Below, one piece after another: positions 5,997-34,830 of a DNA stretch of 36,469 nucleotides. Made by a program: the position numbers and the translations under genes. Position 1 is the first letter of the stretch. Each line of letters starts with the position of its first letter. The stretch lies in IMG/VR virus record IMGVR_UViG_2724679138_000003, one strand, 5' to 3'. The notes under the pieces were generated by a model. It saw only the letters and a list, made by a program, of their open reading frames with translations. It had not been told where the DNA came from and did not search any database. This DNA comes from a virus (Duplodnaviria; Heunggongvirae; Uroviricota; Caudoviricetes).

Positions 5997-6326
5997 CTAT
6001 GCCACGACCTGTTCAAAATCTGCCGTTATGGTTACCCACAGCGCCCCCACGCTTGCCGACCATTTACGACAAACCACCCTGATCGGTTTCCAGTCATAAG
6101 GTGGCGTCCACTGAAATGCACGGACGCCACCGTGCCGTTCCAGAAAGGCTTTTAAAGATGGGTGTTCACATTTACGAACACGTATCGTCACGCTGTAAGT
6201 CGACAACTGGTTATTCAGTCCCGCCGCACGACGCTGTTCATAACCATCGCCCAGCTTCACTGTCACCACTTTCGGCTCTGATACCACATTCATATCCGGG
6301 CGCACTTTCCAGTGAAACGTCTCCAT
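5997..6326 (-). CDS. M: Minor tail protein M
   Basis: 109 aa lambda M-like (..KVRPDMNVVSEPKVVTVKLGDGYEQRRAAGLN..); start codon shares a base with the H stop. Confidence 0.85.
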   Translation of the reverse strand: METFHWKVRPDMNVVSEPKVVTVKLGDGYEQRRAAGLNNQLSTYSVTIRVRKCEHPSLKAFLERHGGVRAFQWTPPYDWKPIRVVCRKWSASVGALWVTITADFEQVVA

Positions 6327-19060: not shown

Positions 19061-19669
19061 GGAGGACCCGTCAGCCTGACAGCCATGACGAACGTCTGAT
19101 ACAGCACCCTGCATGAATGGCATCGGGATAATCCAGAAAGGAATAGCATCGTACCCACAAGAATCTGTGTGAGTGTCCTGTTTCTTCCACCCCCGCACAG
19201 GACTGGCGAGCATGAGGGACAAACCCGCGAATCATTAGCGCGGTAAAAACCCGGTGTGCATCGTTTTTGATTATTCCCGCACACTCTCGCAGAAGGAGTT
19301 CCCCGTCGGGCTACGGTCTCTGTTAATACGGGAATACGGCGACGATACAGCGCATGATGTGTCAGGCTTGAATACCTTTATCCGTTAAAAGGGATATCAG
19401 TTAAGTTATCCCGTGTAGGGTATAAACCATTATCAAAGCCACTCTGTAGGGAGTGGCTTTTGTAATGACAATAAAAAGCCCCGCGAATACGAGGCTAAAT
19501 CCTGGTATTTGTAATGACTGGCTCTTATCTCAACGCAGCCCCTTACCGCGCGCAAGATGCTCAATATCAAGCATCAGCAATGAGATATTTAATCTGCATT
19601 CACTCCAGAAGTGATCACCACCCTGTCTACAGAGCCAGATGTGAAGGATGATGAGTAAAATTATCGCTA

Positions 19670-20131
19670 TCATCGAAGGCATTGCGTCCTGATGTATTCC
19701 TGCAGATAGTTAACCTGCGCGGTTATCTTGTCGATTCCACTTCGGAGACGGTAATAATTGAGTTCAGCATCTGCTGTAAGTCCTGGGCTTTCTCCATCGC
19801 CCATGCTGCTGGCTCCGGTCGTTGACTTTGCACAGGTGGCGGCGACTTGCAGGCGCTTACGCCCAGCAGAAACATCAGCACGGAGACTTTCGATAGTCGC
19901 GTTAGCATCAGCAAGCTCCTTTGTATATCTGGCATCGAGTTCTGCTACGTCACGTTGACGCTTCTGCATATCAGAGATCGTCGCCATAGCCGAATCTAAT
20001 GCCATAGCGTTTTCGTCGCGCTGTTTTTTGTATTCAATGGCTTTATTGTGGTAATGATTAGCTGACCAGACAAGACCACCAGCGACACAAGCAATAAACG
20101 TTAAAATGAGCGCCCAATAACTCATCTTCAT
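19670..20131 (-). CDS. Spanin inner-membrane subunit (Rz-like)
   Basis: 153 aa, N-terminal TM segment (YWALILTFIACVAGGLVW) then coiled-coil; start overlaps the endolysin stop (ATGA). Confidence 0.8.
   Translation of the reverse strand: MKMSYWALILTFIACVAGGLVWSANHYHNKAIEYKKQRDENAMALDSAMATISDMQKRQRDVAELDARYTKELADANATIESLRADVSAGRKRLQVAATCAKSTTGASSMGDGESPGLTADAELNYYRLRSGIDKITAQVNYLQEYIRTQCLR
19723..19908 (-). CDS. Spanin outer-membrane lipoprotein (Rz1-like), embedded in Rz in another frame
   Basis: MLTRLSKVSVLMFLLGVSAC: signal peptide with lipobox VSAC, then Pro-rich KSPPPVQSQRPEP; lies entirely inside the Rz ORF. Confidence 0.7.
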   Translation of the reverse strand: MLTRLSKVSVLMFLLGVSACKSPPPVQSQRPEPAAWAMEKAQDLQQMLNSIITVSEVESTR

Positions 20132-20742
20132 ACCAGCAGCGCCGCCCGCGCCTTGTTGTATCGGACCTTACGATCCTCAATACCGTTCAAACCGCCGTTA
20201 ATGATGCGCGTAACACGGTTAATATCGGCACCGTAGATCATGCAACCTTTAGAGGTGTAGAACCATGCAGCTGAGCGCGCAGCCTGTAGTTCCTGTTCCA
20301 GTTGTTCAGGTGAAGTCACCAGATCTAACTTCAGCGCCGCGCCACAGATGCGATAATTATGGAGGCCAGTGATTTGAATTAATCCTCTACCACGATATTT
20401 CCAGCCATCACCTGGTGCTTTGTTACCCAGTCGGTTGCTATACACCAGATTGGCAATAGCATCCTGACGAGCTGCATGTCCGGATGTTCTGCCAAGGGCA
20501 TCAGCCTGCTGCTGTGTGATCCTCTTTCCGAACGTCGCCACAAGCGCAGATGGTGTGTAGTTAAGATTTTCAACTACGGCGCTAAACCCCATCGACTCAT
20601 GGCCTACCTGAGCGATAAACATTGCCTGATCCGCTGGTGCTGTAATGCCGAATTCCTTCATCGCCGCATCAATGTGCGGAAACCAGCGCGCAGCCAGCCC
20701 GGCGCTAATACCAGCCGCCTTTTGAAATAATTGTTGGTTCAT
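20128..20742 (-). CDS. Endolysin, glycoside hydrolase family 19 (chitinase-like lysozyme)
   Basis: 204 aa; GH19 signature KYRGRGLIQITGLHNY; HESMGF motif; located between membrane proteins and Rz. Confidence 0.85.
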   Translation of the reverse strand: MNQQLFQKAAGISAGLAARWFPHIDAAMKEFGITAPADQAMFIAQVGHESMGFSAVVENLNYTPSALVATFGKRITQQQADALGRTSGHAARQDAIANLVYSNRLGNKAPGDGWKYRGRGLIQITGLHNYRICGAALKLDLVTSPEQLEQELQAARSAAWFYTSKGCMIYGADINRVTRIINGGLNGIEDRKVRYNKARAALLV

Positions 20743-21023
20743 TAGTGCCTCAGATGATCAACCAGACGTGCAACGTTGCCTCTGACAGCCACCAGCACGG
20801 AAAGAAAAATAGTGTTCGCCACGATAATGGGCCATGAGGAATGGGGATAAATCCCACAGAGATAGGCCAACGGAACAGCACTGTATGTAACAGTAATCAG
20901 CCAGGCTAAACGTGAAACCCAAGGACGATGCCGCGAATCACCACGACGATAAAACATCAGAGTAATAACAACACAAGCACATAACAGCGCATTTATAGTT
21001 GCTGTCGGGTCATTTAGCTCCAC
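20742..21023 (-). CDS. Small 3-TM membrane protein of the lysis cassette (possible holin/antiholin partner)
   Basis: 93 aa with three hydrophobic segments; GTG start at 21023 with GGAGG 5 nt upstream; overlaps the holin 3' end by 14 nt. Confidence 0.55.
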   Translation of the reverse strand: MELNDPTATINALLCACVVITLMFYRRGDSRHRPWVSRLAWLITVTYSAVPLAYLCGIYPHSSWPIIVANTIFLSVLVAVRGNVARLVDHLRH

Positions 21024-21396
21024 CTGAACCTCCCCGGCGCGTTATGAGCGCCACCAGCGAGCCGATATCCTGATTATTCAGGAACGTCAGGATTTTAACG
21101 GCTAAAGCAGAGACGATTACGGCACCAATAGCATCCAGAGGTTTATCACTGTATCCGGTCAAGTTCGCCAGCTTGGAGCCAACCAACCCAGAGCAAAGAA
21201 TCCCGGCAATATATGACACGATAAAATATGCCAGTCGGCGCGATGCACTCAGATCTGCAGCTGTTGCTATGTAGAATACAGCCCCTGCAAATGCGCCAAA
21301 TACAACGCCGTAATCAGTTCCGGTCAGCAGTCCATAAACACTGGCACCCGTCAGGGCACCACCAGCCAGCCCAGTACCGGAAATCGGATCGGACAT
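21010..21396 (-). CDS. Putative holin (Gly-rich multi-TM protein)
   Basis: 128 aa, Gly/Ala-rich hydrophobic segments and charged C-terminus (ITRRGGSGGAK); first gene of the lysis cluster; GAGGGGG upstream. Confidence 0.65.
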   Translation of the reverse strand: MSDPISGTGLAGGALTGASVYGLLTGTDYGVVFGAFAGAVFYIATAADLSASRRLAYFIVSYIAGILCSGLVGSKLANLTGYSDKPLDAIGAVIVSALAVKILTFLNNQDIGSLVALITRRGGSGGAK

Positions 21397-21443
21397 TTAG
21401 CCCCCTCTTAATTGCTGTTGGTCCTCTCAGAACGAGGGGAAAC

Positions 21444-21469
21444 AAAAAAGGCCGCATTAAGGCGGCCTT
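21444..21469 (-). terminator. Rho-independent terminator after the moron ORF
   Basis: Minus-strand AAGGCCGC-cttaat-GCGGCCTT followed by TTTTTTG. Confidence 0.65.
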
Positions 21470-21486
21470 GGTAAGGTATAGTTTTT

Positions 21487-22083
21487 TTAAGATAAACTTT
21501 GATTGATATACTCATGACACCCAAAAATAAAGGCGTTTTGTGCATCAATAAATGACTTTTTTTCTTCCGGAGTAAAATACCCTTTTGTAAAACATACTTT
21601 TAGCGCTTTTTGAAGATCTGCCGTCAGGGTTATCAACTTACAACCTTCCTCATCAGGCCTTATTAATAGAAGTAATTTATTTTTACTTATTTCAGCGGCC
21701 TTTATTGGAACTTGAATCTCCTCAGGGAAAACACCCTTAGCCAATATATCCATATTCTTATTTCCGACCAGATGCCATTGCTCAAATGTGCTGGCCAACA
21801 TAATTACGTCTGTCACATGCTCAGCGCCAGCAAAACGTATTTGTTGCGCCAATTCTTTATTAGTATTCAAGTGAGCCTGTAATGTGGCTAAGGCAAAATT
21901 TTCTTTGATTGCCCTGTATGCAACCCAACCAGTTATTCCTGCGGCAATAACGCCTGCAAGAGCAGTAATGAGTGTTTCAAAAGGAAAGGAAGAACTGATT
22001 TCAATTGGCGGTAATTTTTCTATTACCAAGGTCAACTCGCCAGTAGTTTTTTCGAAAGCGTACGGTACGTTTTGCCAAGTCAT
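21487..22083 (-). CDS. Moron: membrane-anchored protein of unknown function between Q and holin
   Basis: 198 aa; one predicted TM helix (TLITALAGVIAAGITGWVAY) near residue 36-57; strong SD (GGAGG); AT-rich relative to neighbours; flanked by hairpin terminators on both sides. Confidence 0.65.
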   Translation of the reverse strand: MTWQNVPYAFEKTTGELTLVIEKLPPIEISSSFPFETLITALAGVIAAGITGWVAYRAIKENFALATLQAHLNTNKELAQQIRFAGAEHVTDVIMLASTFEQWHLVGNKNMDILAKGVFPEEIQVPIKAAEISKNKLLLLIRPDEEGCKLITLTADLQKALKVCFTKGYFTPEEKKSFIDAQNAFIFGCHEYINQSLS

Positions 22084-22113
22084 GAAGCCTCCTGAGTTTC
22101 AGAGGAATCATAA

Positions 22114-22138
22114 CAAAAAAACCCGCTCAATGGCGGGC
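22114..22138 (-). terminator. tR'-like Rho-independent terminator downstream of Q
   Basis: Minus-strand CCCGC-cattga-GCGGG followed by TTTTTTTG, about 50 nt past the Q-like stop. Confidence 0.6.
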
Positions 22139-22189
22139 TCTTAATGTTGTGTTGCTCAGTTCGCTTTAACGTCCCGAGCCTACCACAAT

Positions 22190-22768
22190 TTAAGCACTTT
22201 CTTGCTCACTCTGCAACTTAAATCTGTCGCTATTTGTGCCGAATGCGTCACAAACTGGAGCGTACAGGATCGATTCTGCAAGACTTAGCCAAGTGTCAAT
22301 GCGTCGACGACAGGTGATCAGCGGCCAGTCAGGATGTTTAGCCTGCAGTTCATTGGCCATCTGCAACTTGCTCTTACGAAGACGATACCGGTCAACAATC
22401 ACGCTATAGAGCGATCGGTAGTCATCATTCATCAGTACTGAAGCAATGACACCGTCCACTAACAACCCTTCTTCATCTGAACAGAACGCCAGGCCGCTTT
22501 TATTTTTGCTGTTGAGAATTTCACGCAGGTACGCTTCAAGTTCAGGCTTGGTGATACCCGCTATCTTCATCCGGCGTAGCGCTTCATTGATAGCTGTCTT
22601 GGTGATTTTCCCGGATGCCAGAAGCTGGTTAAACATGTTTCCACCACTACCACCGCCGATATAAGACCAGCGGCCCCACATGCGCAACTTGCCTTGTATC
22701 CAGATACTTTCCAGAGTACGAAGGCGAACCATTTCACCTGATTTGCCAACTTCAGAAGGATTAATCAT
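22190..22768 (-). CDS. Putative late-gene antiterminator (Q-like)
   Basis: 192 aa; position between YdfU and the terminator/lysis genes; motif LRMWGRWS resembles the W-G-x-W motif recalled for phage antitermination Q family. No zinc finger, so not lambda-type Q. Confidence 0.5.
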   Translation of the reverse strand: MINPSEVGKSGEMVRLRTLESIWIQGKLRMWGRWSYIGGGSGGNMFNQLLASGKITKTAINEALRRMKIAGITKPELEAYLREILNSKNKSGLAFCSDEEGLLVDGVIASVLMNDDYRSLYSVIVDRYRLRKSKLQMANELQAKHPDWPLITCRRRIDTWLSLAESILYAPVCDAFGTNSDRFKLQSEQESA

Positions 22769-22782
22769 TTAGCATTCTCCAC

Positions 22783-23832
22783 TTACGCCAGTACGCCTAT
22801 TGCCAGCGCACGATCGATAAAACGAAATATCAGCTCCAGCTGGGAGCCATACTTCTCTTCAAATGCCACGGTATCCGCATGCAGCTTGTCGTGATGCTTT
22901 CTGCACAAAGGCAACACAAAGAGATCATGTGCTTTGGTTCCCATTCCGCCCTGCCCGTGACCAATCAGATGATGCGGATCGTCGGCTGGCATACCGCAGC
23001 AAGCACACGGCTGTGTCTTAACCCAGCGTGTGTATTTCTCCTTAACCCAACGGTGACGTTTAGGCAGCTTCATGAAAGATTCCGGAGACTCTGGATCAAC
23101 GGTGATGCTTACCACCGTCTTTTCCTGTGATGGGTTTTGTTGCTGGTGGGCGTGAGGCAACGGTGCAAGATTTTTTGTGCGCTGTTTCAATATGCTGGTG
23201 GCGGTCTGCTCTCCCGGTACGATGTCGCTTTCGCGGTACACCGAGCAGTTTTTTTCCGCTGGTAATCCCAGCGAGCGACGTAATACCACTTCCGGTAGCG
23301 CGTCCGCCACCTGATTGCGGACCGCCCACCAGGATAATTCAGCCAGAGATAATTCACGCTCCTGCGTACCGCTTATTGCGTGACCGATGACGTCAATCAT
23401 CCATGCTGACAGGTTTTGATGAGCAAGTTGCTCGAGTGATTCGGATGTCTGGTCACGCAGCTGGTTGTCGCAGTGCCAGCACAACACCATTGCGCCGGTA
23501 CCATAACGGTGAATAACGGTTTCGCTGTGATGATAATCGCCGTGTGGCCACTGGCAGGATTTAATATGGCGCAACAGCCAGTCAGACAATGCACCAGCAC
23601 CACCAGCAGCACGAATTACCCGTGCGTTACTGAAAAACGGCAGCAATGTTTTGTCTTCCACCAGCGGCTGGCGAACGGCAGGAACGACCCCGGACGGCAG
23701 ATTACGCATGCTTTTCGGTTCCGGCTCCACCAGTACCCGGGTATTGTGGAATACCGGCATGGATTCACGGCCCGGCTTAACGACCACCAGCCCGAGTTCC
23801 GGTACCAGAACAGGTCGAAGTAATACCCGCAC
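22783..23832 (-). CDS. ydfU: YdfU-like DUF968 protein (C-terminal CxxC / HxxGxG / HH nuclease-like module)
   Basis: 349 aa; C-terminus ...QPCACCGMPADDPHHLIGHGQGG...LPLCRKHHDKLH; GTG start with GGAGG; same size and position as Qin ydfU (recalled). Confidence 0.65.
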   Translation of the reverse strand: MRVLLRPVLVPELGLVVVKPGRESMPVFHNTRVLVEPEPKSMRNLPSGVVPAVRQPLVEDKTLLPFFSNARVIRAAGGAGALSDWLLRHIKSCQWPHGDYHHSETVIHRYGTGAMVLCWHCDNQLRDQTSESLEQLAHQNLSAWMIDVIGHAISGTQERELSLAELSWWAVRNQVADALPEVVLRRSLGLPAEKNCSVYRESDIVPGEQTATSILKQRTKNLAPLPHAHQQQNPSQEKTVVSITVDPESPESFMKLPKRHRWVKEKYTRWVKTQPCACCGMPADDPHHLIGHGQGGMGTKAHDLFVLPLCRKHHDKLHADTVAFEEKYGSQLELIFRFIDRALAIGVLA

Positions 23833-24178: not shown

Positions 24179-24442
24179 TTATTCTTCTGCAAAAGCTGAA
24201 AAGCCTGCTTTTATTCCGATCTCTTTCAGTGCCTGTAATGAAGTGACAAACTCACCTTCGCGCAAGATAAATCCGTCTGTCACTCGACCATCCACAAAAT
24301 TAATTAACGCAGCCCCATTCTTTCGCAAACACATAATGCGGTAATGACTAACAAGATTTCCATTTTCAACGCACACAGCATAGAGGCCATCTTCACAAAA
24401 ATTTTTACGCAGTTCTTCGATGTTCATCATCATGTTCATCAT
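24179..24442 (-). CDS. Hypothetical protein (87 aa)
   Basis: ATG with GGAAGG SD; no recognizable motif. Confidence 0.45.
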   Translation of the reverse strand: MMNMMMNIEELRKNFCEDGLYAVCVENGNLVSHYRIMCLRKNGAALINFVDGRVTDGFILREGEFVTSLQALKEIGIKAGFSAFAEE

Positions 24443-24658: not shown

Positions 24659-24814
24659 TTACTCCTCAGGTTCGTAAGCTGTGAAGACAGCGACCTCCGT
24701 CTGGCCGGTTCGGATTCGTACCTCGCAAAGGTCTTTCCTCGTTACCAGTGCCGTCACTATGACGGTTAAACAGATGACGATCAGGGCGATTAACATCGCC
24801 TTTTGCTGCTTCAT
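24659..24814 (-). CDS. hokD: Hok/Gef-family type I toxin (HokD/RelF-like)
   Basis: 51 aa, MKQQKAMLIALIVICLTVIVTALVTRKDLCEVRIRTGQTEVAVFTAYEPEE: N-terminal TM helix and conserved Hok C-terminus; matches K-12 HokD as recalled. Confidence 0.85.
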   Translation of the reverse strand: MKQQKAMLIALIVICLTVIVTALVTRKDLCEVRIRTGQTEVAVFTAYEPEE

Positions 24815-25279
24815 AGCCTGCTTCTCCTTGCCTTTCGGCACGTAAGAGGCTAACCTACATGTGTCTAGCATGAAATTGGCCTCAGATTAATGTTAAGCGT
24901 CTTGCAGGACGCGTAATGTTAACTGGGGCTTTTCTCTATCTGCCGTTGGTGTTCATGCCCGAGGCAGATAGCCTCAAGCACCCGCAGTCATTCTACTTAA
25001 CTACCGTTACCTCGCCAATGTGAAATCAGTCAGAAAGGCGATCCATAAGAACAATAGCAAGACAATAAATCGCCATTACAGCCGTAATAGCCAGCGCACA
25101 TTTGAGAACCAGCACCACAACCTCCTGTATTGGACGTACACCAGTCCTGATGAATATGAGGCTGTCTCGTCAGTGATTCAATACAACTATTGGGTATAGT
25201 TTCTCTGATTTTTTCTGTGGAAATGGGGCTCAACCACTAGTCATTTAATACGCAAAGTCCGACACAAGCTAACCTTCTA

Positions 25280-25303: not shown

Positions 25304-25623
25304 CTTGTGTAAAAATCCCCATACCGGTTGATCGCGCTGAATGTTAGGTTCATAAACGACACAGGGTACATCGTAATGCTGCTCTATTGCTTCGTAAGTG
25401 ATTCCCAATCGCTGCATCACTCGCTGAGAAGGAGTTCGACAACAGCCACTAAATAGTTGTGCATAGAGAACGACTGGAAAAGGCCGTAGGAACTTACAAA
25501 TCTCAATTCACGGTAGAGTATGATATGGGTATTCAATATAAATACAGCCCTCAAAGGTTTAAATATGAACGGAAGTGTTAAAAACAATCTATCGTCAAAA
25601 AAGTACAAGCTAAAAGAAAAATT

Positions 25624-25911
25624 TTGAATTTGAATCGCGAGCTTTCTAATGGAAAGATCACTCAGGCTGATTATTGTCTATACAAAAAACTGTTTGAAGA
25701 CTACATTCAGGTATTAACATTTCAACACACAAGAATTTTTGTGGAAAAAGATTTAATAGAACTATCAAATCATCGAAGTGGAGTATTCATTACAACTCAG
25801 CATGATACATTAGTAAATAGACTTGACAAAATTGATTATGAAATTGACAGATTAAAAAACTGTTTAAATAAAAAAATTATCGATTACACAAAATTCACAT
25901 CCCTATATTAG
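25624..25911 (+). CDS. Questionable AT-rich ORF (95 codons, no in-frame ATG)
   Basis: Track ORF starts at TTG with no SD. A 20-codon ATG ORF with SD (25565-25627) sits upstream in another frame and ends in A-runs. May be a frameshifted gene or non-coding. Confidence 0.25.
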   Translation: MNLNRELSNGKITQADYCLYKKLFEDYIQVLTFQHTRIFVEKDLIELSNHRSGVFITTQHDTLVNRLDKIDYEIDRLKNCLNKKIIDYTKFTSLY

Positions 25912-26004
25912 GATTTTCTAAGAGTACGACACCGTCACATTTAAATATTATTTGTAGAGGTAAAATGACAGCCTGACGGCGGTATTTCATTGCGAAATGC
26001 TATT

Positions 26005-26027
26005 TAAAAGACCGCATTGAGCGGTCT
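26005..26027 (-). terminator. Hairpin terminator downstream of the island ORF pair
   Basis: Minus-strand AGACCGC-tcaat-GCGGTCT followed by TTTAAAT; about 40 nt past the TAG stop at 26064. Confidence 0.5.
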
Positions 26028-26063
26028 TATGTATCTCACAACATATTACAGAATGACTTTAAA

Positions 26064-26819
26064 CTATTGTTTTAATAACATTTCAAAATCCTCATTCCAG
26101 TGCGTGTTTTGTGAAATACGGGTATCAATTTCATCAAGCAGCATATCATGAGAAAGTATGCTTAAAGGGTCATTCCCATTTTTACCAAAACGCATCGTAG
26201 TTTCTGCTATTTCCCAATCTTCTGCGCTGATTGATGGCTGTATTGCATGGCAGTAGATAGCCTTCACATCCTTTTCATGACAGTCAAAATTATTGATGCT
26301 TTCTGCAATTTTACGAGCTCTTTCAATTTCGACAACTGGACCATGTAAAGTTTCATATGATATATGCACAATTGTAGGGGTATTATCTGGAACCTGTCGT
26401 ACCGCTTTGCTTAAGTGCGTTTTAATATCTTTTGCTTTTTTATTAATCGATTCCTCTGCTATACATTCCCAACGAGCACAGTAACCAGAGTGTATTCCAG
26501 TGCAAAAAATGTTAAGTATATCAACACCGTCGTCCGGACCTACTCGTACAAGTCCTTTTGGGGCACAAAGATGAGTGTAATTTTCGCTGCTGCTAAAACT
26601 TCCGGCCAACAACGAAACCATCTGTGGAGAGTTCCATTTAACCATGTATTTATCAAAATGCTCATTGATATTTTTCATATCTATTCTATTAATCAGTATT
26701 ATAATTTCATCATTTTCTATTCTCAGTGACTTTCTCGTCGAGATATTAGACTTTATTTCATTGAAGATTTTTGCTAAAATATATTCATCTGTATCTTTTA
26801 CTTCAACCTTGAAAAGCAC
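26064..26819 (-). CDS. Island ORF B (251 codons), unknown function; possibly the C-terminal part of a gene split by a TAA
   Basis: Same frame as ORF A with only one TAA (26886-26888) and 22 sense codons between them; no ATG or SD of its own (track start is GTG 26819); AT-rich codon usage. Confidence 0.5.
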   Translation of the reverse strand: MLFKVEVKDTDEYILAKIFNEIKSNISTRKSLRIENDEIIILINRIDMKNINEHFDKYMVKWNSPQMVSLLAGSFSSSENYTHLCAPKGLVRVGPDDGVDILNIFCTGIHSGYCARWECIAEESINKKAKDIKTHLSKAVRQVPDNTPTIVHISYETLHGPVVEIERARKIAESINNFDCHEKDVKAIYCHAIQPSISAEDWEIAETTMRFGKNGNDPLSILSHDMLLDEIDTRISQNTHWNEDFEMLLKQ

Positions 26820-26885
26820 GTCTAAAAATATGTTTTGTCTAGACTGAGTTAGAATAGGTACTAAATTGAGCCATCTTTGCCTCCA

Positions 26886-27518
26886 TTATCGACGCTCATT
26901 TTCAGAATATTCAGTCACTTTAGATAAACGCTTACATTCCACAAAAAAGCTTTCTTCACCTTTAGTAACTTTTAAATCAGGAGTTTTATTTAATGCTGTT
27001 TCTGGAATAAATTCTACTCTATAACCATTGCGCGCATACATAATCGCAACAACTAATTCAAACAATGTTGAATCAGGTTGATTTATTTTACCGTTAAGAA
27101 ATTCCGAAAGTTTTTCATCAATCCCAACAATTTTTTTTGCAAGCTCAATATGTCTTCCAACAGCCGCAAAAAAGGGAAATACTCGGGCTGATTGCGCTAA
27201 CTCGCTAACTAAAGGCCGTTCATGTAAGCATTCTACAAGAAAAAGATACCATGCAACCCAATCCTCATGAAATGCCACCCTATTTTTTGGCTCTTCCATA
27301 CTCTTCATTGCTTGGTCAAAATTCTTATAGGTGTTATCTTCCTGTTCTCTGAAGTACTTGACTACATTTTTTTTGCGAGTCTCCCAAGTATCCTTTTCCA
27401 GATAAGATAAAAACCAGTCCAATGCAATTTTCGTATGATGATGCCAGGGACTGGTATCCGTTGCTGCAAAAATCTCTTGTAGTTCTTTTGAATATTCCAA
27501 TGTCTGTGTGTTAGCCAT
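26886..27518 (-). CDS. Island ORF A (210 aa), unknown function with C-terminal PD-(D/E)xK-like motif
   Basis: ATG 27518 with GAGG 6 nt upstream; C-terminal ...LFELVVAIMYARNGYRVEFIPETALNKTPDLKVTKGEESFFVECKRL has helix-E, PD, and hydrophobic-ExK spacing typical of the restriction-endonuclease fold. Confidence 0.6.
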   Translation of the reverse strand: MANTQTLEYSKELQEIFAATDTSPWHHHTKIALDWFLSYLEKDTWETRKKNVVKYFREQEDNTYKNFDQAMKSMEEPKNRVAFHEDWVAWYLFLVECLHERPLVSELAQSARVFPFFAAVGRHIELAKKIVGIDEKLSEFLNGKINQPDSTLFELVVAIMYARNGYRVEFIPETALNKTPDLKVTKGEESFFVECKRLSKVTEYSENERR

Positions 27519-27768
27519 TTTGACCTCATCATTGTTAATTTATGAGATTTTACAACTTATAATGCATCTTCCAGATCGAGCCTCCAAGTAAGAAATCAGG
27601 CTAAATCAGACAGATATGTAATATATCCCTAGTCAATTAGGCAGTCCACCCATAAATCCTAACAGTACGAAAATGGTTGGAACGTTATCCTAGGTTACTG
27701 CTCATCGTTTCCTTATGACCTCAATATATAAATATCCCAGCTCTTGCGGTTCGATTGTATGATTGACA

Positions 27769-27792
27769 GTCCGCTCCTGGCACAAAGCGGAC
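27769..27792. repeat. 24-bp hairpin element, right boundary of AT-rich island (inverted copy)
   Basis: GTCCGCTCCTGGCACAAAGCGGAC; its reverse complement GTCCGCTTTGTGCCAGGAGCGGAC matches 25280-25303 at 22 of 24 positions. Confidence 0.6.
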
Positions 27793-27889
27793 AACCACGC
27801 CAGATCTACCCTGTGCCATGAAAAATGAGAATGTCAATTCACTCCTGAACTAATGCTTTTTAATCTAGTAACGTCTAAAATACCTAACA

Positions 27890-29297: not shown

Positions 29298-29799
29298 AAT
29301 TCCATCCAGCTTTTTGTTGGTATTGCTGTCGATACGCAAGTTTGAAAGCAATTGCTTTTTCTATAAGTTCGTCAGTTTCACGATCCACTACGGCAGGATC
29401 AGCAAAAAGCAGTCCGGACTCCACCACATCGCCATATTCTTTGTTTAACCCGGCGATCATGTACGTGATGCTTTTTCCGTCACTAATTTCACGATACAAC
29501 CTGAAATCATTAATCCGGATAGCCTCCATAATTGCAGGCACTAGCGCCGTGAACTTTTCACGCTTATCCCTAGTGTCGATAGCCTTCCAGCGTTCGAATA
29601 TCTTCACTCGATTAACGCCAAGCGCTCGCTGATCAACCGCGCCACCTTCATCTGTGACACGCTGAACATCGATGTTCGGGCGCTCTTTCAAAGCCCAGAA
29701 TGCTTCAGTGATTAATATCGTCGCCTGCTCCTGTGTCATTCCTGGTCGACATATCCAGGCATCCAGAGCCTCACGAGCCTGTTCAGGAGTGATTTTCAT
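29278..29799 (-). CDS. Early-region protein between Cro-like gene and replication initiator (possible CII/YdaT-like regulator)
   Basis: 173-aa ORF overlapping the DicC-like 3' end by 17 nt; function not recognizable from sequence. Confidence 0.45.
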   Translation of the reverse strand: MKITPEQAREALDAWICRPGMTQEQATILITEAFWALKERPNIDVQRVTDEGGAVDQRALGVNRVKIFERWKAIDTRDKREKFTALVPAIMEAIRINDFRLYREISDGKSITYMIAGLNKEYGDVVESGLLFADPAVVDRETDELIEKAIAFKLAYRQQYQQKAGWNYEPSFC

Positions 29800-30010
29800 T
29801 GTTCAACCGCCCCGCCCGCTTCGTCTTACGATATTCGTCATAAACCTTGGGATCATACAGAAGCTCGCCGCCAGATGCCTCCTGTAGACGCATCGCGCGA
29901 CCTTCAGGAACCAGCTCTTGCCATTGAGAAACAGCAGATGGGTCAACGCCAGCAGCTTTCGCTACTTTGGCTTTCGTACCGTAAAAATTAATTACGTCTG
30001 ATTTAAACAT
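29783..30010 (-). CDS. dicC: Cro-like regulator (DicC-like)
   Basis: About 75 aa from ATG 30010 (GGAGG 4 nt upstream): MFKSDVINFYGTKAKVAKAAGVDPSAVSQW... (HTH); divergent from the DicA-like repressor. Confidence 0.65.
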   Translation of the reverse strand: MFKSDVINFYGTKAKVAKAAGVDPSAVSQWQELVPEGRAMRLQEASGGELLYDPKVYDEYRKTKRAGRLNNENHS

Positions 30011-30087
30011 CGCACCTCCAATATTGAGTTTTCTCAATGCTAATCACTCAAGGAATCTCAAGTCAAGGGTTATTAAGATATCTAAAT
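30011..30087. promoter_or_regulatory. Divergent promoter/operator region between dicC-like and dicA-like genes
   Basis: 77-bp intergenic spacer containing the palindrome TTGAGTTTTCTCAA (30024-30037) and CTCAAGGAATCTCAAG. Confidence 0.5.
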
Positions 30088-30495
30088 ATGAACGAGAAAA
30101 CTTTAGGTCAACGCATTAGAGAAAGACGTAAGCAGGTAGGCTTAAGTCAAAACGGTTTAAGCAAAGCTGCTGGCGTATCTGGCTCATCAATTTCATTATG
30201 GGAAAGTGACCATACAGCCCCGCGCGGGCAAAATTTGCATCGCCTCGCCGAGGTATTGCAATGTTCACCAACCTGGATACTGTTTGGCGACGAGGACAAA
30301 ACACCAGCTCCCCCTGTTTCACTCGATAGTGCCTTAGACTTATCGGAAGATGAGTTAGAGATGCTGCGTTTGTATCGCGCACTTCCTAAATCAGAGCAAC
30401 AAGCACAACTCAGCGAACTCCGCGCCCGCGTTGAGAATTTTAATCGCCTGTTCACCGAGCTATTAGAGGCTCGCAAACGCAACAAGCATCAATAA
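30088..30495 (+). CDS. dicA: Prophage repressor (DicA-like, HTH_XRE)
   Basis: 135 aa, MNEKTLGQRIRERRKQVGLSQNGLSKAAGVSGSSISLWE... (XRE HTH); gene order dicC-dicA-ydfA...dicF-dicB as in K-12 Qin. Confidence 0.75.
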   Translation: MNEKTLGQRIRERRKQVGLSQNGLSKAAGVSGSSISLWESDHTAPRGQNLHRLAEVLQCSPTWILFGDEDKTPAPPVSLDSALDLSEDELEMLRLYRALPKSEQQAQLSELRARVENFNRLFTELLEARKRNKHQ

Positions 30496-30554: not shown

Positions 30555-30615
30555 AATACTTGAGTTTTCTCATCAAAAAACCTTGACGAAAAATAATGAG
30601 AAAACTAAATTACTT
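30555..30615 (+). promoter_or_regulatory. Promoter and operators of the ydfA-dicF-dicB operon
   Basis: TTGACG (30583-30588), 17-bp spacer, TAAATT (30606-30611); operator-like TGAGTTTTCTCA at 30561-30572 and inverted copy TGAGAAAACTAA at 30597-30608. Confidence 0.5.
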
Positions 30616-30687
30616 CCATCAAGACACCGCACGGTGTTCTCAGCAAACAGTTCCGCTACCCCGGCGTTAAGGGGAAATGAGGTCAGC

Positions 30688-30840
30688 ATGGATACTATCG
30701 ATCTTGGCAACAGCGAATCTCTGGTATGTGGCGTGTTCCCCAACCAGGACGGTACGTTCACCGCGATGACATATACCAAAAGCAAAACGTTTAAAACCGA
30801 ATCTGGCGCGCGTTGCTGGTTAGCCAGAAACACTGACTGA
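30688..30840 (+). CDS. ydfA: YdfA-like small protein (DUF1391)
   Basis: 50 aa, MDTIDLGNSESLVCGVFPNQDGTFTAMTYTKSKTFKTESGARCWLARNTD; GAGG SD; first gene of dicB operon. Confidence 0.65.
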   Translation: MDTIDLGNSESLVCGVFPNQDGTFTAMTYTKSKTFKTESGARCWLARNTD

Positions 30841-30851
30841 TGAGGCTGACG

Positions 30852-31217
30852 ATGGAATTTAAAGATTTACCGTCTGATGTACAGAAAACAGCAGCTCATA
30901 CATTGCATTCTGTGCTGCGAGAAATCGGGAAAGATATTGCAAGCGAGCCAGCAAAAGATCTGGCCCGGAAAATCAAGACCGCTTTCGTTGAGCTTTATAA
31001 TGTTGGCACTGACTCTGAAACTGTCGAGACCAAGACCGTAAGTTCACCAATATTCTCACTTGAGCCAGGCGTATTATCAGGTGAAATATGCACCGAGATT
31101 TCCAGCGAACTGCTTCCGGTAATACGAGAAGCAATTTGCCGTCGCGGTTTGGATGGAAGTTACGATCATGACGTCCTGCAAGTTCTCAGGACAATGGTGA
31201 CTTCACTGGGGATTTGA
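30852..31217 (+). CDS. Hypothetical protein in ydfB/ydfC position
   Basis: 121 aa from ATG 30852 (GAGG upstream), MEFKDLPSDVQKTAAHTLHSVLREIGKD... Confidence 0.55.
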   Translation: MEFKDLPSDVQKTAAHTLHSVLREIGKDIASEPAKDLARKIKTAFVELYNVGTDSETVETKTVSSPIFSLEPGVLSGEICTEISSELLPVIREAICRRGLDGSYDHDVLQVLRTMVTSLGI

Positions 31218-31386
31218 TCCCTGCGTCCTCTAACCTTTTGATATAGCGGTCCTCCAAGAAGCGGTAAATTTTGTCGAAATCATCTTTCCCCTCTGGTTTA
31301 TTCAGAGGATTACAGGACCCGTAAGTAGCGGCATACATTTCAACCGTTTTATCAAAAATATAAGAGACAAATTCTTCTTTAGTCAT
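31186..31386 (-). CDS. Small convergent ORF (66 aa), unknown function
   Basis: ATG 31386 with AAGGAA SD, MTKEEFVSYIFDKTVEMYAATYGSCNPLNKPEGKDDFDKIYRFLEDRYIKRL...; overlaps the 3' end of the preceding plus-strand gene by 32 nt. Confidence 0.45.
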   Translation of the reverse strand: MTKEEFVSYIFDKTVEMYAATYGSCNPLNKPEGKDDFDKIYRFLEDRYIKRLEDAGIKSPVKSPLS

Positions 31387-31661
31387 ATAGATTTCCTTCT
31401 TGGTTATTCTGGATAAGAAGGATACCACCTCGCCTGACGTGGTTAAAAGCAGGCACACAACACGAAAGCGCACGGCGAAGTTCGTCTCACTGTACGGTGT
31501 CGTTAAATTTAATTCGACCGTGCGCTTCCGGTTGTGGCAACCCGCGAAATGGCGCGGCGGTAAGTATGGCGGGGTTATTCCTTCCCCGTTGAGGACACCG
31601 AGTTGTCAGGTTGACCATACGCTTAAGTGACAACCCCGCTGCAACGCCCTCTGTTATCAAT

Positions 31662-31719
31662 TTTCTGGTGACGTTTGGCGGTATCAGTTTTACTCCGTGA
31701 CTGCTCTGCCGCCGTTTTT
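31662..31719 (+). ncRNA. dicF: DicF small regulatory RNA
   Basis: TTTCTGGTGACGTTTGGCGGTATCAGTTTTACTCCGTGACTGCTCTGCCGCCG followed by TTTTT; matches the K-12 DicF sequence as recalled (one mismatch at the 3' end); sits between ydfC-position gene and dicB. Confidence 0.8.
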
Positions 31720-31888
31720 AAAGTGAATTTTGTGATGCGGTGAATGCGGCTAAGCGCACGCGGAACAGTTAAAACCAAAAACAGTGTTATGGGTGGATTC
31801 TCTGTATCCGGCGTTAATTGTTAACTGGTTAACGTCACCTGGAGGCACCAGGCACTGCATCACAAAATTCATTGTTGAGGACGCGATA

Positions 31889-32077
31889 ATGAAAACGTTA
31901 TTACCAAACGTTAATACGTCTGAAGGTTGTTTTGAAATTGGTGTCACTATCAGTAACCCTGTATTTACTGAAGATGCCATTAACAAGAGAAAACAAGAAC
32001 GGGAGCTATTAAATAAAATATGCATTGTTTCAATGCTGGCTCGTTTACGTCTGATGCCAAAAGGATGTACACAATGA
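31889..32077 (+). CDS. dicB: Cell division inhibitor DicB
   Basis: 62 aa, MKTLLPNVNTSEGCFEIGVTISNPVFTEDAINKRKQERELLNKICIVSMLARLRLMPKGCTQ; GAGGA SD. Confidence 0.85.
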   Translation: MKTLLPNVNTSEGCFEIGVTISNPVFTEDAINKRKQERELLNKICIVSMLARLRLMPKGCTQ

Positions 32078-32265
32078 ATTCAGCATTTGCGCTTGTTCTG
32101 ACAGTTTTTCTTGTTTCCGGAGAGCCAGTTGATATTGCAGACAGTGTTCACAGGACAATGCAGGAGTGTATGACTGCAGCAACCGAACAGAAAATTCCCG
32201 GTAACTGTTACCCGGTCGATAAAGTTATTCACCAGGATAATATCGAAATCCCGGCAGGTCTTTAA
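32074..32265 (+). CDS. ydfD: YdfD-like small membrane protein
   Basis: 63 aa, MNSAFALVLTVFLVSGEPVDIADSVHRTMQECMTAATEQKIPGNCYPVDKVIHQDNIEIPAGL; start overlaps the dicB stop (ATGA). Confidence 0.75.
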   Translation: MNSAFALVLTVFLVSGEPVDIADSVHRTMQECMTAATEQKIPGNCYPVDKVIHQDNIEIPAGL

Positions 32266-32358
32266 AACAGTTCCGTAATAAATATCCGGTTTCATTCTTA
32301 TATGCCAGCAATGGCAGGGATTTGTTCATCCTTAAATCTGTCATGAGGTTAAAACAAA

Positions 32359-34830
32359 ATGAGTAAAGTCTTTATTTGCGCCGCTATTCCTGACGAACTG
32401 GCAACAAGGGAAGAAGGCGCTGTGGCTGTAGCCACAGCCATTGAAGCTGGCGACGAACGCCGTGCTCGAGCAAAATTTCACTGGCAGTTCCTGGAACATT
32501 ATCCGGCTGCTCAGGACTGCGCTTATAAATTTATTGTCTGCGAGGATAAACCTGGCATACCCCGCCCTGCCCTCGATTCATGGGATGCTGAATATATGCA
32601 GGAAAACCGCTGGGATGAGGAGTCAGCTTCTTTTGTCCCGGTTGAGACTGAATCCGATCCGATGAACGTCACTTTTGACAAGCTGGCCCCTGAAGTACAG
32701 AACGCTGTCATGGTTAAGTTCGACACATGTGAAAACATCACCGTTGATATGGTTATTAGCGCACAGGAATTGTTGCAGGAAGACATGGCAACATTCGACG
32801 GACATATCGTTGAAGCGTTGATGAAAATGCCAGAAGTTAACGCCATGTATCCGGAGCTTAAGTTGCACGCCATTGGGTGGGTTAAGCATAAATGTATTCC
32901 TGGTGCTAAATGGCCCGAAATTCAGGCAGAGATGCGCATCTGGAAAAAACGTCGCGAAGGTGAACGCAAGGAAACCGGAAAATACACGTCTGTTGTTGAT
33001 CTCGCCCGCGCCAGAGCCAATCAACAGTACACTGAAAATTCAACAGGAAAAATCAGCCCGGTCATTGCTGCCATTCATCGCGAATACAAGCAGACATGGA
33101 AAACACTGGATGACGAACTGGCCTACGCTCTCTGGCCTGGTGATGTGGATGCCGGAAACATTGACGGCAGCATCCATCGCTGGGCAAAAAAAGAAGTTAT
33201 CGACAACGACCGCGAAGACTGGAAGCGTATCTCGGCATCAATGCGCAAACAGCCTGATGCCCTTCGCTACGACCGCCAAACTATTTTTGGCCTTGTCCGT
33301 GAGCGTCCGATCGACATTCACAAAGATCCCGTAGCACTGAACAAATATATCTGCGAATACCTGACGACAAAGGGCGTGTTTGAGAATGAAGAAACAGACC
33401 TGGGCACTGTTGATGTTCTCCAGTCATCAGAAACACAAACTGATGCAGTGGAAACTGAGGTATCTGATATCCCAAAAAATGAAACCGCGCCGGAAGCTGA
33501 ACCATCTGTAGAGCGTGAGGGGCCGTTCTATTTCCTCTTCGCAGATAAGGACGGAGAAAAATACGGTCGCGCAAACAAACTTTCTGGTCTGGATAAGGCA
33601 CTGGCTGCTGGCGCCACTGAAATCACAAAAGAAGAATATTTTGCCCGAAAAAATGGCACATACACGGGCTTACCGCAAAATGTAGATACCGCTGAAGATT
33701 CAGAACAACCAGAGCCGATAAAAGTTACCGCTGACGAAGTAAACAAAATTATGCAGGCAGCCAATATCAGCCAGCCTGACGCCGATAAGTTGCTTGCTGC
33801 ATCACATGGTGAATTTGTTGAAGGGATTAGTGACCCGAATGATCCGAAATGGGTTAAGGGGATCCAGACCCGCGATTCTGTGAACCAGAACCAGCATGAA
33901 TCGGAACGGAACTACCAAAAAGCGGAACAAAACAGCCCAAATGCGTTACAAAACGAGCCAGAAACGAAACAGCCTGAACCAGTGGCGCAACAGGAAGTGG
34001 AAAAAGTCTGCACCGCCTGCGGTCAGACTGGCGGCGGCAACTGCCCTGATTGTGGCGCGGTGATGGGCGACGCAACATACCAAGAAACATTCGATGAAGA
34101 GTATCAGGTTGAAGTTCAGGAAGATGATCCGGAGGAAATGGAAGGCGCTGAACATCCACACAAGGAGAACACTGGCGGCAATCAGCATCACAATAGCGAT
34201 AATGAAACTGGCGAGACGGCAGATCACTCAATTAAGGTGAACGGTCATCACGAAATCACATCCACCAGCAGGACGTGTGACCATCTAATGATCGACCTTG
34301 AAACCATGGGAAAAAATCCTGATGCACCGATCATCTCAATAGGTGCAATATTTTTCGATCCGCAAACCGGAGATATAGGACCGGAATTTAGTAAGACTAT
34401 CGATCTGGAAACTGCTGGCGGAGTCATTGATCGGGACACCATTAAATGGTGGCTTAAGCAATCACGCGAAGCACAATCTGCCATTATGACCGATGAAATC
34501 CCGTTAGATGATGCACTGTTACAATTGCGGGAATTTATCGACGAAAACTCCGGTGAATTATTTGTTCAGGTTTGGGGAAATGGAGCCAACTTCGACAACA
34601 CGATTTTGCGCCGTTCATACGAACGGCAGGGGATCCCCTGCCCGTGGCGTTACTACAACGATCGCGATGTACGCACAATCGTTGAGCTGGGGAAAGCCAT
34701 AGATTTCGATGCCAGAACGGCTATTCCATTCGAAGGTGAGCGCCATAATGCACTTGATGACGCCCGTTACCAGGCAAAATACGTTTCAGTTATCTGGCAA
34801 AAACTGATCCCGAGTCAGGCTGATTCTTAA
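32359..34830 (+). CDS. Exodeoxyribonuclease VIII-like protein with C-terminal DnaQ-like (DEDDh) 3'-5' exonuclease domain
   Basis: 823 aa; C-terminal HLMIDLETMG...WGNGANFDNTIL...HNALDDARY (DEDDh motifs); central CTACGQTGGGNCPDCG zinc-ribbon; acidic linker; position next to xis-int as for prophage exoVIII genes. Confidence 0.75.
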   Translation: MSKVFICAAIPDELATREEGAVAVATAIEAGDERRARAKFHWQFLEHYPAAQDCAYKFIVCEDKPGIPRPALDSWDAEYMQENRWDEESASFVPVETESDPMNVTFDKLAPEVQNAVMVKFDTCENITVDMVISAQELLQEDMATFDGHIVEALMKMPEVNAMYPELKLHAIGWVKHKCIPGAKWPEIQAEMRIWKKRREGERKETGKYTSVVDLARARANQQYTENSTGKISPVIAAIHREYKQTWKTLDDELAYALWPGDVDAGNIDGSIHRWAKKEVIDNDREDWKRISASMRKQPDALRYDRQTIFGLVRERPIDIHKDPVALNKYICEYLTTKGVFENEETDLGTVDVLQSSETQTDAVETEVSDIPKNETAPEAEPSVEREGPFYFLFADKDGEKYGRANKLSGLDKALAAGATEITKEEYFARKNGTYTGLPQNVDTAEDSEQPEPIKVTADEVNKIMQAANISQPDADKLLAASHGEFVEGISDPNDPKWVKGIQTRDSVNQNQHESERNYQKAEQNSPNALQNEPETKQPEPVAQQEVEKVCTACGQTGGGNCPDCGAVMGDATYQETFDEEYQVEVQEDDPEEMEGAEHPHKENTGGNQHHNSDNETGETADHSIKVNGHHEITSTSRTCDHLMIDLETMGKNPDAPIISIGAIFFDPQTGDIGPEFSKTIDLETAGGVIDRDTIKWWLKQSREAQSAIMTDEIPLDDALLQLREFIDENSGELFVQVWGNGANFDNTILRRSYERQGIPCPWRYYNDRDVRTIVELGKAIDFDARTAIPFEGERHNALDDARYQAKYVSVIWQKLIPSQADS

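Follow-up and report, generated by a model that had tools for sequence, protein, structure and literature searches.

Early-left operons of the lambda pL type place a division inhibitor ahead of the recombination, xis and int genes. The lambda pL operon with kil and the Rac prophage with kilR are described examples of repressor-controlled early-left operons with a division inhibitor (PMC3961180). In the Qin prophage of Escherichia coli K-12 (ydfABC-dicF-dicB-ydfDE), a 1608-nt transcript covers ydfABC, dicFB and ydfD (PMC10448788). The small RNA DicF is excised from the transcript made at the promoter dicBp, with a 190-nt species that starts at an RNase III cut and a 53-nt species that starts at an RNase E cut, and transcripts ending at DicF and after ydfD have both been seen (PMC10448788). 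The 190-nt DicF species is stable in K-12 (PMC10448788). DicF represses the ftsZ, xylR and pykA mRNAs in an Hfq-dependent manner (PMC5069750), and DicB blocks FtsZ-ring formation in a MinC-dependent manner (PMC10448788). The promoter dicBp is derepressed by Rem, an antirepressor of DicA, and DicA and the Gifsy repressors are both antirepressor-controlled (PMC10448788). A search of phage genome databases published in 2016 found no dicF or dicB in phages (PMC5069750). As for RNA elements in early phage operons, the putL and putR sites of phage HK022 are made of two stem-loops (PMC9378689).

Here we describe the dicF-dicB operon in a 36,469-nt stretch of DNA from a Caudoviricetes virus (IMG/VR record IMGVR_UViG_2724679138_000003), referred to as the window. 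This operon is a known system in a common form and is ordinary. We consider it highly probable that a lambdoid prophage of the Qin family is represented here by its early-left (pL-type) operon in an undecayed state, and that the operon would work as in K-12. Over its right 8.7 kb, the window shares 99.8% identity with a prophage that E. coli STEC2017-197 carries next to rspA/rspB, the Qin site of K-12, and whose int and xis are annotated as intact. Besides the rspB site, as seen in this near-identical prophage, the window shares with Qin the gene order and the strand of the operon. The genes are arranged as a Cro/DicC-like gene, a DicA-like gene, ydfA, a 121-aa ORF, a 66-aa ORF, dicF, dicB, ydfD, an exonuclease gene, xis and int. 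Unlike in K-12, where ydfE, xis and int are disrupted by IS2, these genes are intact in the window, and late genes are present.

The terminase, portal, head and tail genes of the window show 97.9% identity to the annotated STEC2017-197 prophage. The window also encodes an O-like replication protein, a DUF977/Ren-like protein and a CII-like YdaT protein, and its lysis region contains Q, two holins, an endolysin and Rz. There is also hokD with sok RNA, and the window gives two Rfam matches at curated thresholds in total, one of them DicF. The earlier note took this DNA for an apparently complete prophage. The gene content speaks for this description, as int, xis, immunity, replication, Q, lysis, terminase, head and tail genes are all found, and a complete prophage is plausible on this basis; the window itself ends in the tail region, stopping just past the J tail gene, and the tail fibres and the far attachment site lie outside it. 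The window is a mosaic that departs from STEC2017-197 at the Q/lysis region and at an island of 2.5 kb, and the best single phage genome covers just 46% of its right 25 kb. ORFs of a low-GC island gave no defence-system or Pfam matches.

DicF occupies positions 31662-31714 on the plus strand, as placed by alignment to dicF of K-12 MG1655 (b1574), and 52 of its 53 nucleotides are identical to K-12. The single mismatch to K-12 given in the earlier note is borne out by this alignment. It is a C to G change at 31714, the last nucleotide, which is an unpaired base in the Rfam consensus, and bases 1-52 are identical. A scan of the whole window at Rfam gathering thresholds, the check proposed for dicF in the earlier note, returned exactly one DicF match, to RF00039 at 31663-31714 (+), with 72.5 bits against a threshold of 48 (E = 2.8e-14) and covering the full model (positions 1-52 of 52). 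The predicted fold is the same as that of K-12 DicF (-16.6 versus -15.9 kcal/mol), with a 3' stem-loop followed by UUUUU at 31715-31719 and a single-stranded 5' seed that is identical to that of the characterised K-12 RNA. The stem-loop and the U run at 31715-31719 are predicted to double as an intrinsic terminator. Given its sequence identity to K-12, DicF in the window would be predicted to repress its targets in an Hfq-dependent manner. The 5' leader of dicB (31726-31866, +) is 98% identical to K-12 and resembles the Salmonella small RNA family STnc100 (RF02076) below threshold, with 34.5 bits against a threshold of 47 bits and E = 7e-6 in a local Rfam search. Apart from DicF and this sub-threshold match, no Rfam family was found in 31380-31900 at E values up to 10.

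The sequences needed for DicF processing in K-12 are kept as well. Over the 200 nt located 5' of DicF, a stretch that holds both the RNase III hairpin and the RNase E site, the window and K-12 are nearly identical. The K-12 RNase III site falls in a long hairpin (31456-31537, +) that is predicted for K-12 and the window alike, and counting 190 nt back from 31714 leads to approximately 31525, in the 3' arm of this hairpin. One stem position differs between the window and K-12, C-G versus U-G, and the pairing is kept. The RNase E context, AUCAAU with UUUCUGG directly after the cut, is identical to K-12. Both processing elements of K-12 are thus retained in the window, and cleavage at both is predicted. 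In folds of both the window and K-12, the linker ahead of DicF is predicted as a small hairpin (GUUAUCA with UGGUGAC) with the RNase E site in its loop, and this model hints that the DicF seed may be masked until cleavage.

Directly downstream, dicB (31889-32077, +) encodes a cell-division inhibitor of 62 aa with a full-length DicB domain (PF05358, residues 1-62, 136 bits against a cut-off of 27). Its sequence matches K-12 DicB (b1575) at 61 of 62 residues, with A61T as the sole change. The following gene, ydfD (32074-32265, +), encodes a lysis protein of 63 aa that matches DUF1482 over its full length (87 bits against a Pfam cut-off of 25) and its K-12 counterpart, b1576, at 61 of 63 residues. 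The start of ydfD overlaps the stop of dicB in the sequence ATGA at 32074-32077, an arrangement that fits translational coupling of the two genes. Both ORFs are intact, with one and two amino-acid changes relative to K-12, which agrees with the earlier description of dicB and ydfD as complete. We note that the span originally marked, 31662-32077, runs from the first base of DicF to the stop of dicB, and that ydfD falls just outside it. Disrupting mutations in dicF, in its processing context or in dicB, sought by alignment to K-12, were not found.

A weak terminator-like hairpin lies 3' of ydfD (32303-32326, +), and by analogy with K-12 its position would roughly correspond to the end of the 1608-nt transcript. 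Further downstream, an exonuclease of 823 aa (32359-34830, +) is the full-length form of the protein whose gene survives in K-12 as the pseudogene ydfE, as determined by alignment and Pfam. The N-terminal 255 aa of the exonuclease match what is left of ydfE in K-12 with 100% identity, and its C-terminus matches the Pfam Rv2179c-like 3'-5' exonuclease family with 227 bits.

The control region of the operon differs from that of K-12. The gene at 30088-30495 (+) encodes a DicA-type prophage repressor of 135 aa (Pfam HTH_3, 56.9 bits; a RefSeq ORF in an identical genome). The earlier note had placed the operon downstream of an intact repressor. The ORF is indeed intact; the protein is not the K-12 DicA allele, to which it is 57% identical at equal length, and its sequence identifies it as a DicA homologue of different immunity. 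The repressor fits the short DicA/Gifsy type, which is characterized by a length of approximately 135 aa, an N-terminal helix-turn-helix and a divergent Cro-like partner. The Pfam search of the repressor returned helix-turn-helix families only, and no peptidase or LexA-like autocleavage domain. The divergent partner (29783-30010, -; Pfam P22_Cro, 59 bits) is a Cro/DicC-like regulator with 70% identity to K-12 DicC, in which the N-terminal DNA-binding half has diverged and the C-terminal part is conserved. A specificity other than that of K-12 extends over the N-terminal half of DicC, the control region between the two genes, dicA itself and the promoter of the operon.

The divergent promoter region (30011-30087) contains an operator-like palindrome of 14 nt, TTGAGTTTTCTCAA, at 30024-30037 (assigned to neither strand). 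This palindrome recurs with one or two mismatches at 30560-30573 and 30596-30609, and these two copies flank and overlap the hexamers of a dicBp-like (pL-like) promoter with operator-like sites (30560-30611, +), which was found by a consensus promoter scan. The promoter hexamers, TTGACG and TAAATT separated by a 17-nt spacer, span 30583-30611. At up to three mismatches, the only further match to TTGAGTTTTCTCAA in the 36 kb is at 13559. We note that the promoter and terminator scans used here are simple consensus matches. The copies of the palindrome are putative operators of the resident repressor and would have been swapped in along with it. Because the 14-mer is common to the immunity region and to the dicBp-like promoter, the repressor appears to be matched to the promoter of the operon. 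Swapping of the operators together with the repressor would keep the operon under local immunity control. A rem homologue is found at 24179-24442 (-) and is 95% identical to K-12 Rem over 83 aa. With only 57% identity between the repressor and K-12 DicA, control by this Rem copy is a candidate relationship. There is no LexA box upstream of rem or elsewhere in the window.

Between this control region and DicF, the operon is mosaic. Near-identity to K-12 restarts at approximately 30617, directly 3' of the promoter-like site, and runs through the leader and through the first operon gene, a ydfA homologue (30688-30840, +) that matches DUF1391 (Pfam, 94 bits) and aligns with K-12 ydfA. Near-identity restarts again at approximately 31460, at the base of the long hairpin, and holds through dicF, dicB, ydfD and ydfE. 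The segment 30852-31217 has no similarity to K-12. It corresponds to a 121-aa ORF on the plus strand (PHROG 33007, full length, E = 1e-82), which sits at the position of K-12 ydfB/ydfC and is unrelated to these genes. The 66-aa ORF (31186-31386, -; PHROG 34441, full length, E = 1.5e-50; RefSeq WP_000159335.1) is convergent with the operon, overlaps the 121-aa ORF by 32 nt and has AAGGAA located 7 nt ahead of its ATG. A convergent gene between the promoter and DicF could interfere with transcription. In the terminator scan, no terminator-like sites were found on the plus strand from the promoter to DicF.

These features suggest how the operon would work. In a lysogen, the short DicA-type repressor would bind the operators overlapping the dicBp-like promoter and keep the operon off. 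Once repression is lifted, in K-12 by Rem and here possibly by the 95%-identical copy, transcription would start at approximately 30617, and the transcript would pass through ydfA, the 121-aa ORF, the long hairpin, a structured domain described below, and DicF. RNase III is predicted from the K-12 precedent to cut the long hairpin, leaving an RNA of ~190 nt that comprises the domain and DicF, and RNase E would cut just 5' of UUUCUGG to release the 53-nt DicF, while the hairpin and U run of DicF would serve as a terminator too. DicF would pair with ftsZ and other mRNAs and block their translation. Read-through would allow production of DicB, which would recruit MinC to the septum and dismantle FtsZ rings, and of the lysis protein YdfD. 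Further read-through would reach the exonuclease gene, xis and int. The comparison shows how closely each element agrees in sequence with its K-12 counterpart; expression, processing and phenotype in the strain carrying the window are in this model all predicted from the DNA. The division inhibitors of lambda and Rac, Kil and KilR, are unrelated to those of the window, where DicB would act through MinC and DicF as an antisense RNA.

The same arrangement is found in sequenced phages. The 2.7-kb module from the immunity region to ydfD is 98.9% identical to the window in phages mEp460_ev081 (100% of the query) and HannyBb (78%). The lambdoid phages Tritos and PPompW also have dicF-dicB, and the Tritos record explicitly annotates DicF. 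The other modules of these four phages are unlike the window, as expected of lambdoid mosaics. Among 5426 complete E. coli genomes, dicF was found in 3947 with a 76-nt DicF-centred query, in up to seven copies per genome. For 872 records of complete E. coli genomes, the best match was the exact DicF allele with the terminal G. When species-representative genomes were scanned for an exact pattern, only eight DicF loci were found, in Escherichia, Shigella, Salmonella and probably contaminated metagenome-assembled genomes, a number too small for cross-species statistics.

It could be argued that what resembles DicF is the remnant of a decayed gene or a hairpin that arose by chance. A DicF match of such strength is not a chance match. 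The score of 72.5 bits over the full model, the 52/53 identity to K-12 dicF and the kept synteny with dicB and ydfD all speak against this explanation, and we regard its probability as practically negligible. A more serious alternative is that the genes are intact and the operon has been uncoupled by the swapped immunity and promoter module and by the convergent gene, so that dicF and dicB are carried as silent passengers. The replacement of ydfB/ydfC would be compatible with this scenario, as would the 66-aa ORF on the opposite strand, which has a good ribosome-binding site and overlaps the 121-aa ORF, and the exact 2.7-kb mosaic occurs in only 177 of the 5426 complete E. coli genomes. However, the arrangement is maintained almost unchanged in mEp460_ev081 and HannyBb; the exonuclease gene, xis and int, which follow on the same strand, depend on transcription that comes from upstream; the plus strand carries no detected terminator-like site between promoter and DicF; and the operator-like sites tie the promoter to the resident repressor. 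We consider uncoupling improbable. The preferred reading is a working early-left operon as in Qin. The earlier note had called the operon likely functional; the intact, near-K-12 products support this proposal, and the function itself is deduced from the sequence.

Comparison with other phages drew attention to the region immediately 5' of DicF. A conserved structured RNA domain (31527-31649, +), which makes up the 5' part of the 190-nt precursor, is recognized by a covariance model built in this analysis, R1, with 148 bits. The domain is predicted to fold into a four-way junction, in which helix P1 closes the junction with hairpins P2, P3 and P4, and it further contains a pseudoknot. P1 is formed by GUUGUGGC with GCYRCAAC, P2 by CCGCG with CGCGG and P4 by GUUGUCA with UGACAAC, while P3 is variable. 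The pseudoknot pairs GUAUGG, located after P2, with CCAUAC in the loop of P4. The P3 sequence occurs in 31 different forms. Their stems include several that are unrelated, and nearly all of the forms can be folded as hairpins. The domain is absent from Rfam 15. R1 finds exactly one copy in the window and none in the rightward operon, and one copy in each of the 85 loci searched.

The fold is supported by comparisons among its copies. In an independent MAFFT alignment, 95% of the cells can pair, versus 30-57% when the partners are slid by one to three columns. In 65 distinct sequences aligned to the model, 97.2% of the cells are paired versus 30-59% in the slid controls; because this alignment (A7) was made to fit the model, its pair counts are biased toward the structure. 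In the same 65-sequence alignment, eight pairs of the domain change on both sides, and the observed values were reached by 0 of 500 shuffles. The domain has a narrow range, being limited to enterobacterial phages, and the covariation rests on few independent events. The closely related phages P1 and P7 show a compensatory change in the pseudoknot, GCAUGG/CCAUGC versus GUAUGG/CCAUAC. Many G-U pairs in helix P1 fit an RNA of the plus strand only. A protein-coding origin of the conserved region was ruled out, as the length steps in P3 are not multiples of three and the G-U pairs are compatible with the plus strand only. The cloverleaf-like shape of the domain resembles a tRNA or tmRNA, and ARAGORN found neither in the window.

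A sensitive BLAST search of phage genomes with 31440-31890 found the domain alone, at 78-89% identity, in phages without DicF, including Ayreon, cdtI, 2H10, Stx2c phages, Salmonella phage F1055 and P1. Approximately 120 more domain loci came from viral contigs, which were scanned for an exact pattern. In Ayreon, the domain lies a few hundred nucleotides downstream of cI and an annotated promoter, and its position with respect to cI is equivalent in cdtI. The C1-controlled ban promoters of P1 and P7 lie ~30 nt ahead of the domain. The domain is on the sense strand in all loci examined, and an intrinsic terminator is found 11-36 nt downstream of it in 43 of 43 distinct variants (~130 loci). These terminators have at least nine unrelated hairpin sequences, one of which is the DicF hairpin. 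In E. coli genomes, the domain is found at 8924 places and DicF at 6301. In the window type and in the Ayreon type, a long hairpin abuts the 5' edge of the domain. The domain is missing from a Salmonella locus in which an RNase III-like hairpin, with compensatory differences in its stem, and a DicF-like hairpin are both present, which implies that the hairpin, the domain and DicF are separable pieces.

The ~120 nt located 5' of DicF may possibly have a function of their own beyond being part of a precursor RNA, a suggestion that we put forward tentatively. The domain may represent an uncatalogued family of structured RNA of enterobacterial temperate phages, of which DicF may be one derived terminator variant. 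Two roles can be considered for it. The domain may be a discrete, stable early RNA of ~150-190 nt, with its 3' end made by the terminator and its 5' end made by RNase III or by the promoter itself. This reading fits because the 190-nt species is stable in K-12 and because a hairpin is found at the 5' edge of the domain. Alternatively, the domain may be a cis element that sets the read-through of the first early-left terminator in phages without N. This reading fits because of the position of the domain and because no N-like protein was found in the homologous early-left operon of Ayreon, where the early ORFs after pL have matches only to functionally unassigned PHROGs. The annotation of the dicB operon of the window includes no N gene. 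A riboswitch-type antiterminator was judged unlikely, since no alternative pairing with the terminator was consistent when the variants were compared by eye. Pairing between the 3' strand of the domain and the 5' arm of the terminator is possible in some variants (CCCGC with GCGGG) and is absent in the Ayreon and P1 types.

A parallel to such a cis element is put of HK022. Like put, the domain is a folded nascent RNA of the sense strand that follows an early promoter and precedes a terminator, in phages in which no N-like protein was found. Unlike put, which consists of two stem-loops of ~70 nt, the domain of the window is a four-way junction with a pseudoknot and is present in one copy. Homology between the two was rejected, as R1 found no significant match in positions 24000-38000 of HK022 with filters off; a functional analogy is possible. 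The single copy of the domain and its lack of homology to put are observations that go against the read-through reading. The P1 records AF234172 and AF234173 annotate a 'dicF-like region' (misc_feature), which overlaps the 3' half of the domain and its terminator in the leader of the ban operon. The domain copy of P1 scores 84 bits with R1. Unlike the window, P1 has no DicF seed or DicF hairpin sequence, and its terminator is an unrelated hairpin, GCCCA...UGGGC.

These comparisons raise a different view of the locus, in which a folded domain of ~120 nt and the intrinsic terminator to which it is coupled form the primary unit, placed where early operons begin, and DicF is the linker plus terminator of one lineage that was turned into an antisense RNA. 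The coupling of the domain to at least nine unrelated terminators at 11-36 nt in the 43 variants is in line with this view, and so are its placement after cI and the annotated promoter in Ayreon, at a like place in cdtI and after the ban promoters of P1 and P7, the covariation including the compensatory change between P1 and P7, its larger number relative to DicF, the long hairpin at the 5' edge in two types and the stability of the 190-nt species in K-12 (PMC10448788). However, the Salmonella DicF-like hairpin without the domain implies that RNAs of the DicF type do not need it, the phylogenetic range is narrow with few independent covariation events, the pair counts of the model-fitted A7 alignment are biased toward structure, and the likeness at the sequence level was noticed before, as the 'dicF-like region' annotation in P1 illustrates. 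We regard this view as possible and rather doubtful. The reading of the locus as the undecayed early-left operon of a Qin-family prophage remains the preferred one.

For the window, the operon matters as annotation only, as it marks an undecayed member of the Qin family and represents the cryptic prophage of K-12 before its decay. The genes dicF and dicB travel in sequenced lambdoid phage genomes. On derepression, the host cells would be predicted to form filaments and to exclude ManYZ-dependent phages through DicB. If the view of a domain coupled to a terminator is true, DicF would become one variant of a widespread unit of folded domain plus terminator in phage early operons, and the domain would be a candidate for an RNA element that controls early transcription in the P1 ban operon and in lambdoid phages that have no N.

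Directly 5′ of DicF lies a conserved RNA domain of ~120 nt, which contains a four-way junction and a pseudoknot (window 31527-31649, plus strand). Further copies are located in three of the compared loci (L014, 2497-2619; L013, 2489-2605; L138, 1505-1624). The domain is also found in lambdoid phages that do not contain DicF, and P1 and P7 likewise carry it in their ban leader. An intrinsic terminator is located 3′ of the domain in every case. This pseudoknotted domain is absent from Rfam 15.

A DicF-like hairpin was also found in the Salmonella enterica locus L007 (3640-3800, minus strand), which, unlike the window, does not contain the 120-nt domain. Immediately 5′ of this hairpin there is a long hairpin of the RNase III type, and the differences between its stem and the Escherichia coli one are compensating changes. 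A small opposite-strand gene is located just upstream in L007, and the same arrangement is observed in the window.

In the early-left operon of the window, the 5′ untranslated leader of ydfA (30617-30687, plus strand) is nearly identical to that of K-12 from the presumed transcription start, and the promoter and operators preceding it are unrelated to the K-12 ones. We note that two sequences within this leader, ACACC-GCAC-GGUGU and CCCC-GGCGUUAA-GGGG, form small hairpins. Where K-12 has ydfB and ydfC, the window (30852-31386) contains a 121-aa ORF (PHROG 33007) and, on the minus strand, a 66-aa ORF (PHROG 34441), both matching families with no assigned function. The two ORFs are convergent and overlap, and the 66-aa gene, which lies inside the operon, is antisense to the operon transcript. 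The dicB leader, which is the spacer between dicF and dicB (31726-31866, plus strand), shows a sub-threshold resemblance to STnc100, an sRNA family from Salmonella (34.5 bits, with the threshold at 47), and portions of it match the phages P7, D6, and Rac-SA53 independently of DicF.

The prophage of STEC2017-197 is otherwise near-identical to the window but differs in the Q/lysis region (window 19231-22812), where the window encodes Rz together with two holins and an endolysin of 204 aa. The STEC2017-197 prophage carries tRNA-Ile and tRNA-Arg after Q, whereas the window has neither; no tRNA gene was found in the whole window. The window shares with Qin a hok/sok type I toxin-antitoxin locus (24809-24983 and 24659-24871, minus strand), whose sok RNA matches Rfam RF01794 with 115 bits and is accompanied by a HokD-like ORF. 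Between the replication module and hok/rem there is a low-GC island (25500-27800; 30-37% GC, compared with about 45-54% in the flanks), which contains on the minus strand two ORFs (251 and 210 aa) that gave no match in Pfam and no convincing match in PADLOC. At the same position, the related STEC prophage has a different gene, encoding a 449-aa hypothetical protein. The island may represent a hotspot for cargo or defence genes.
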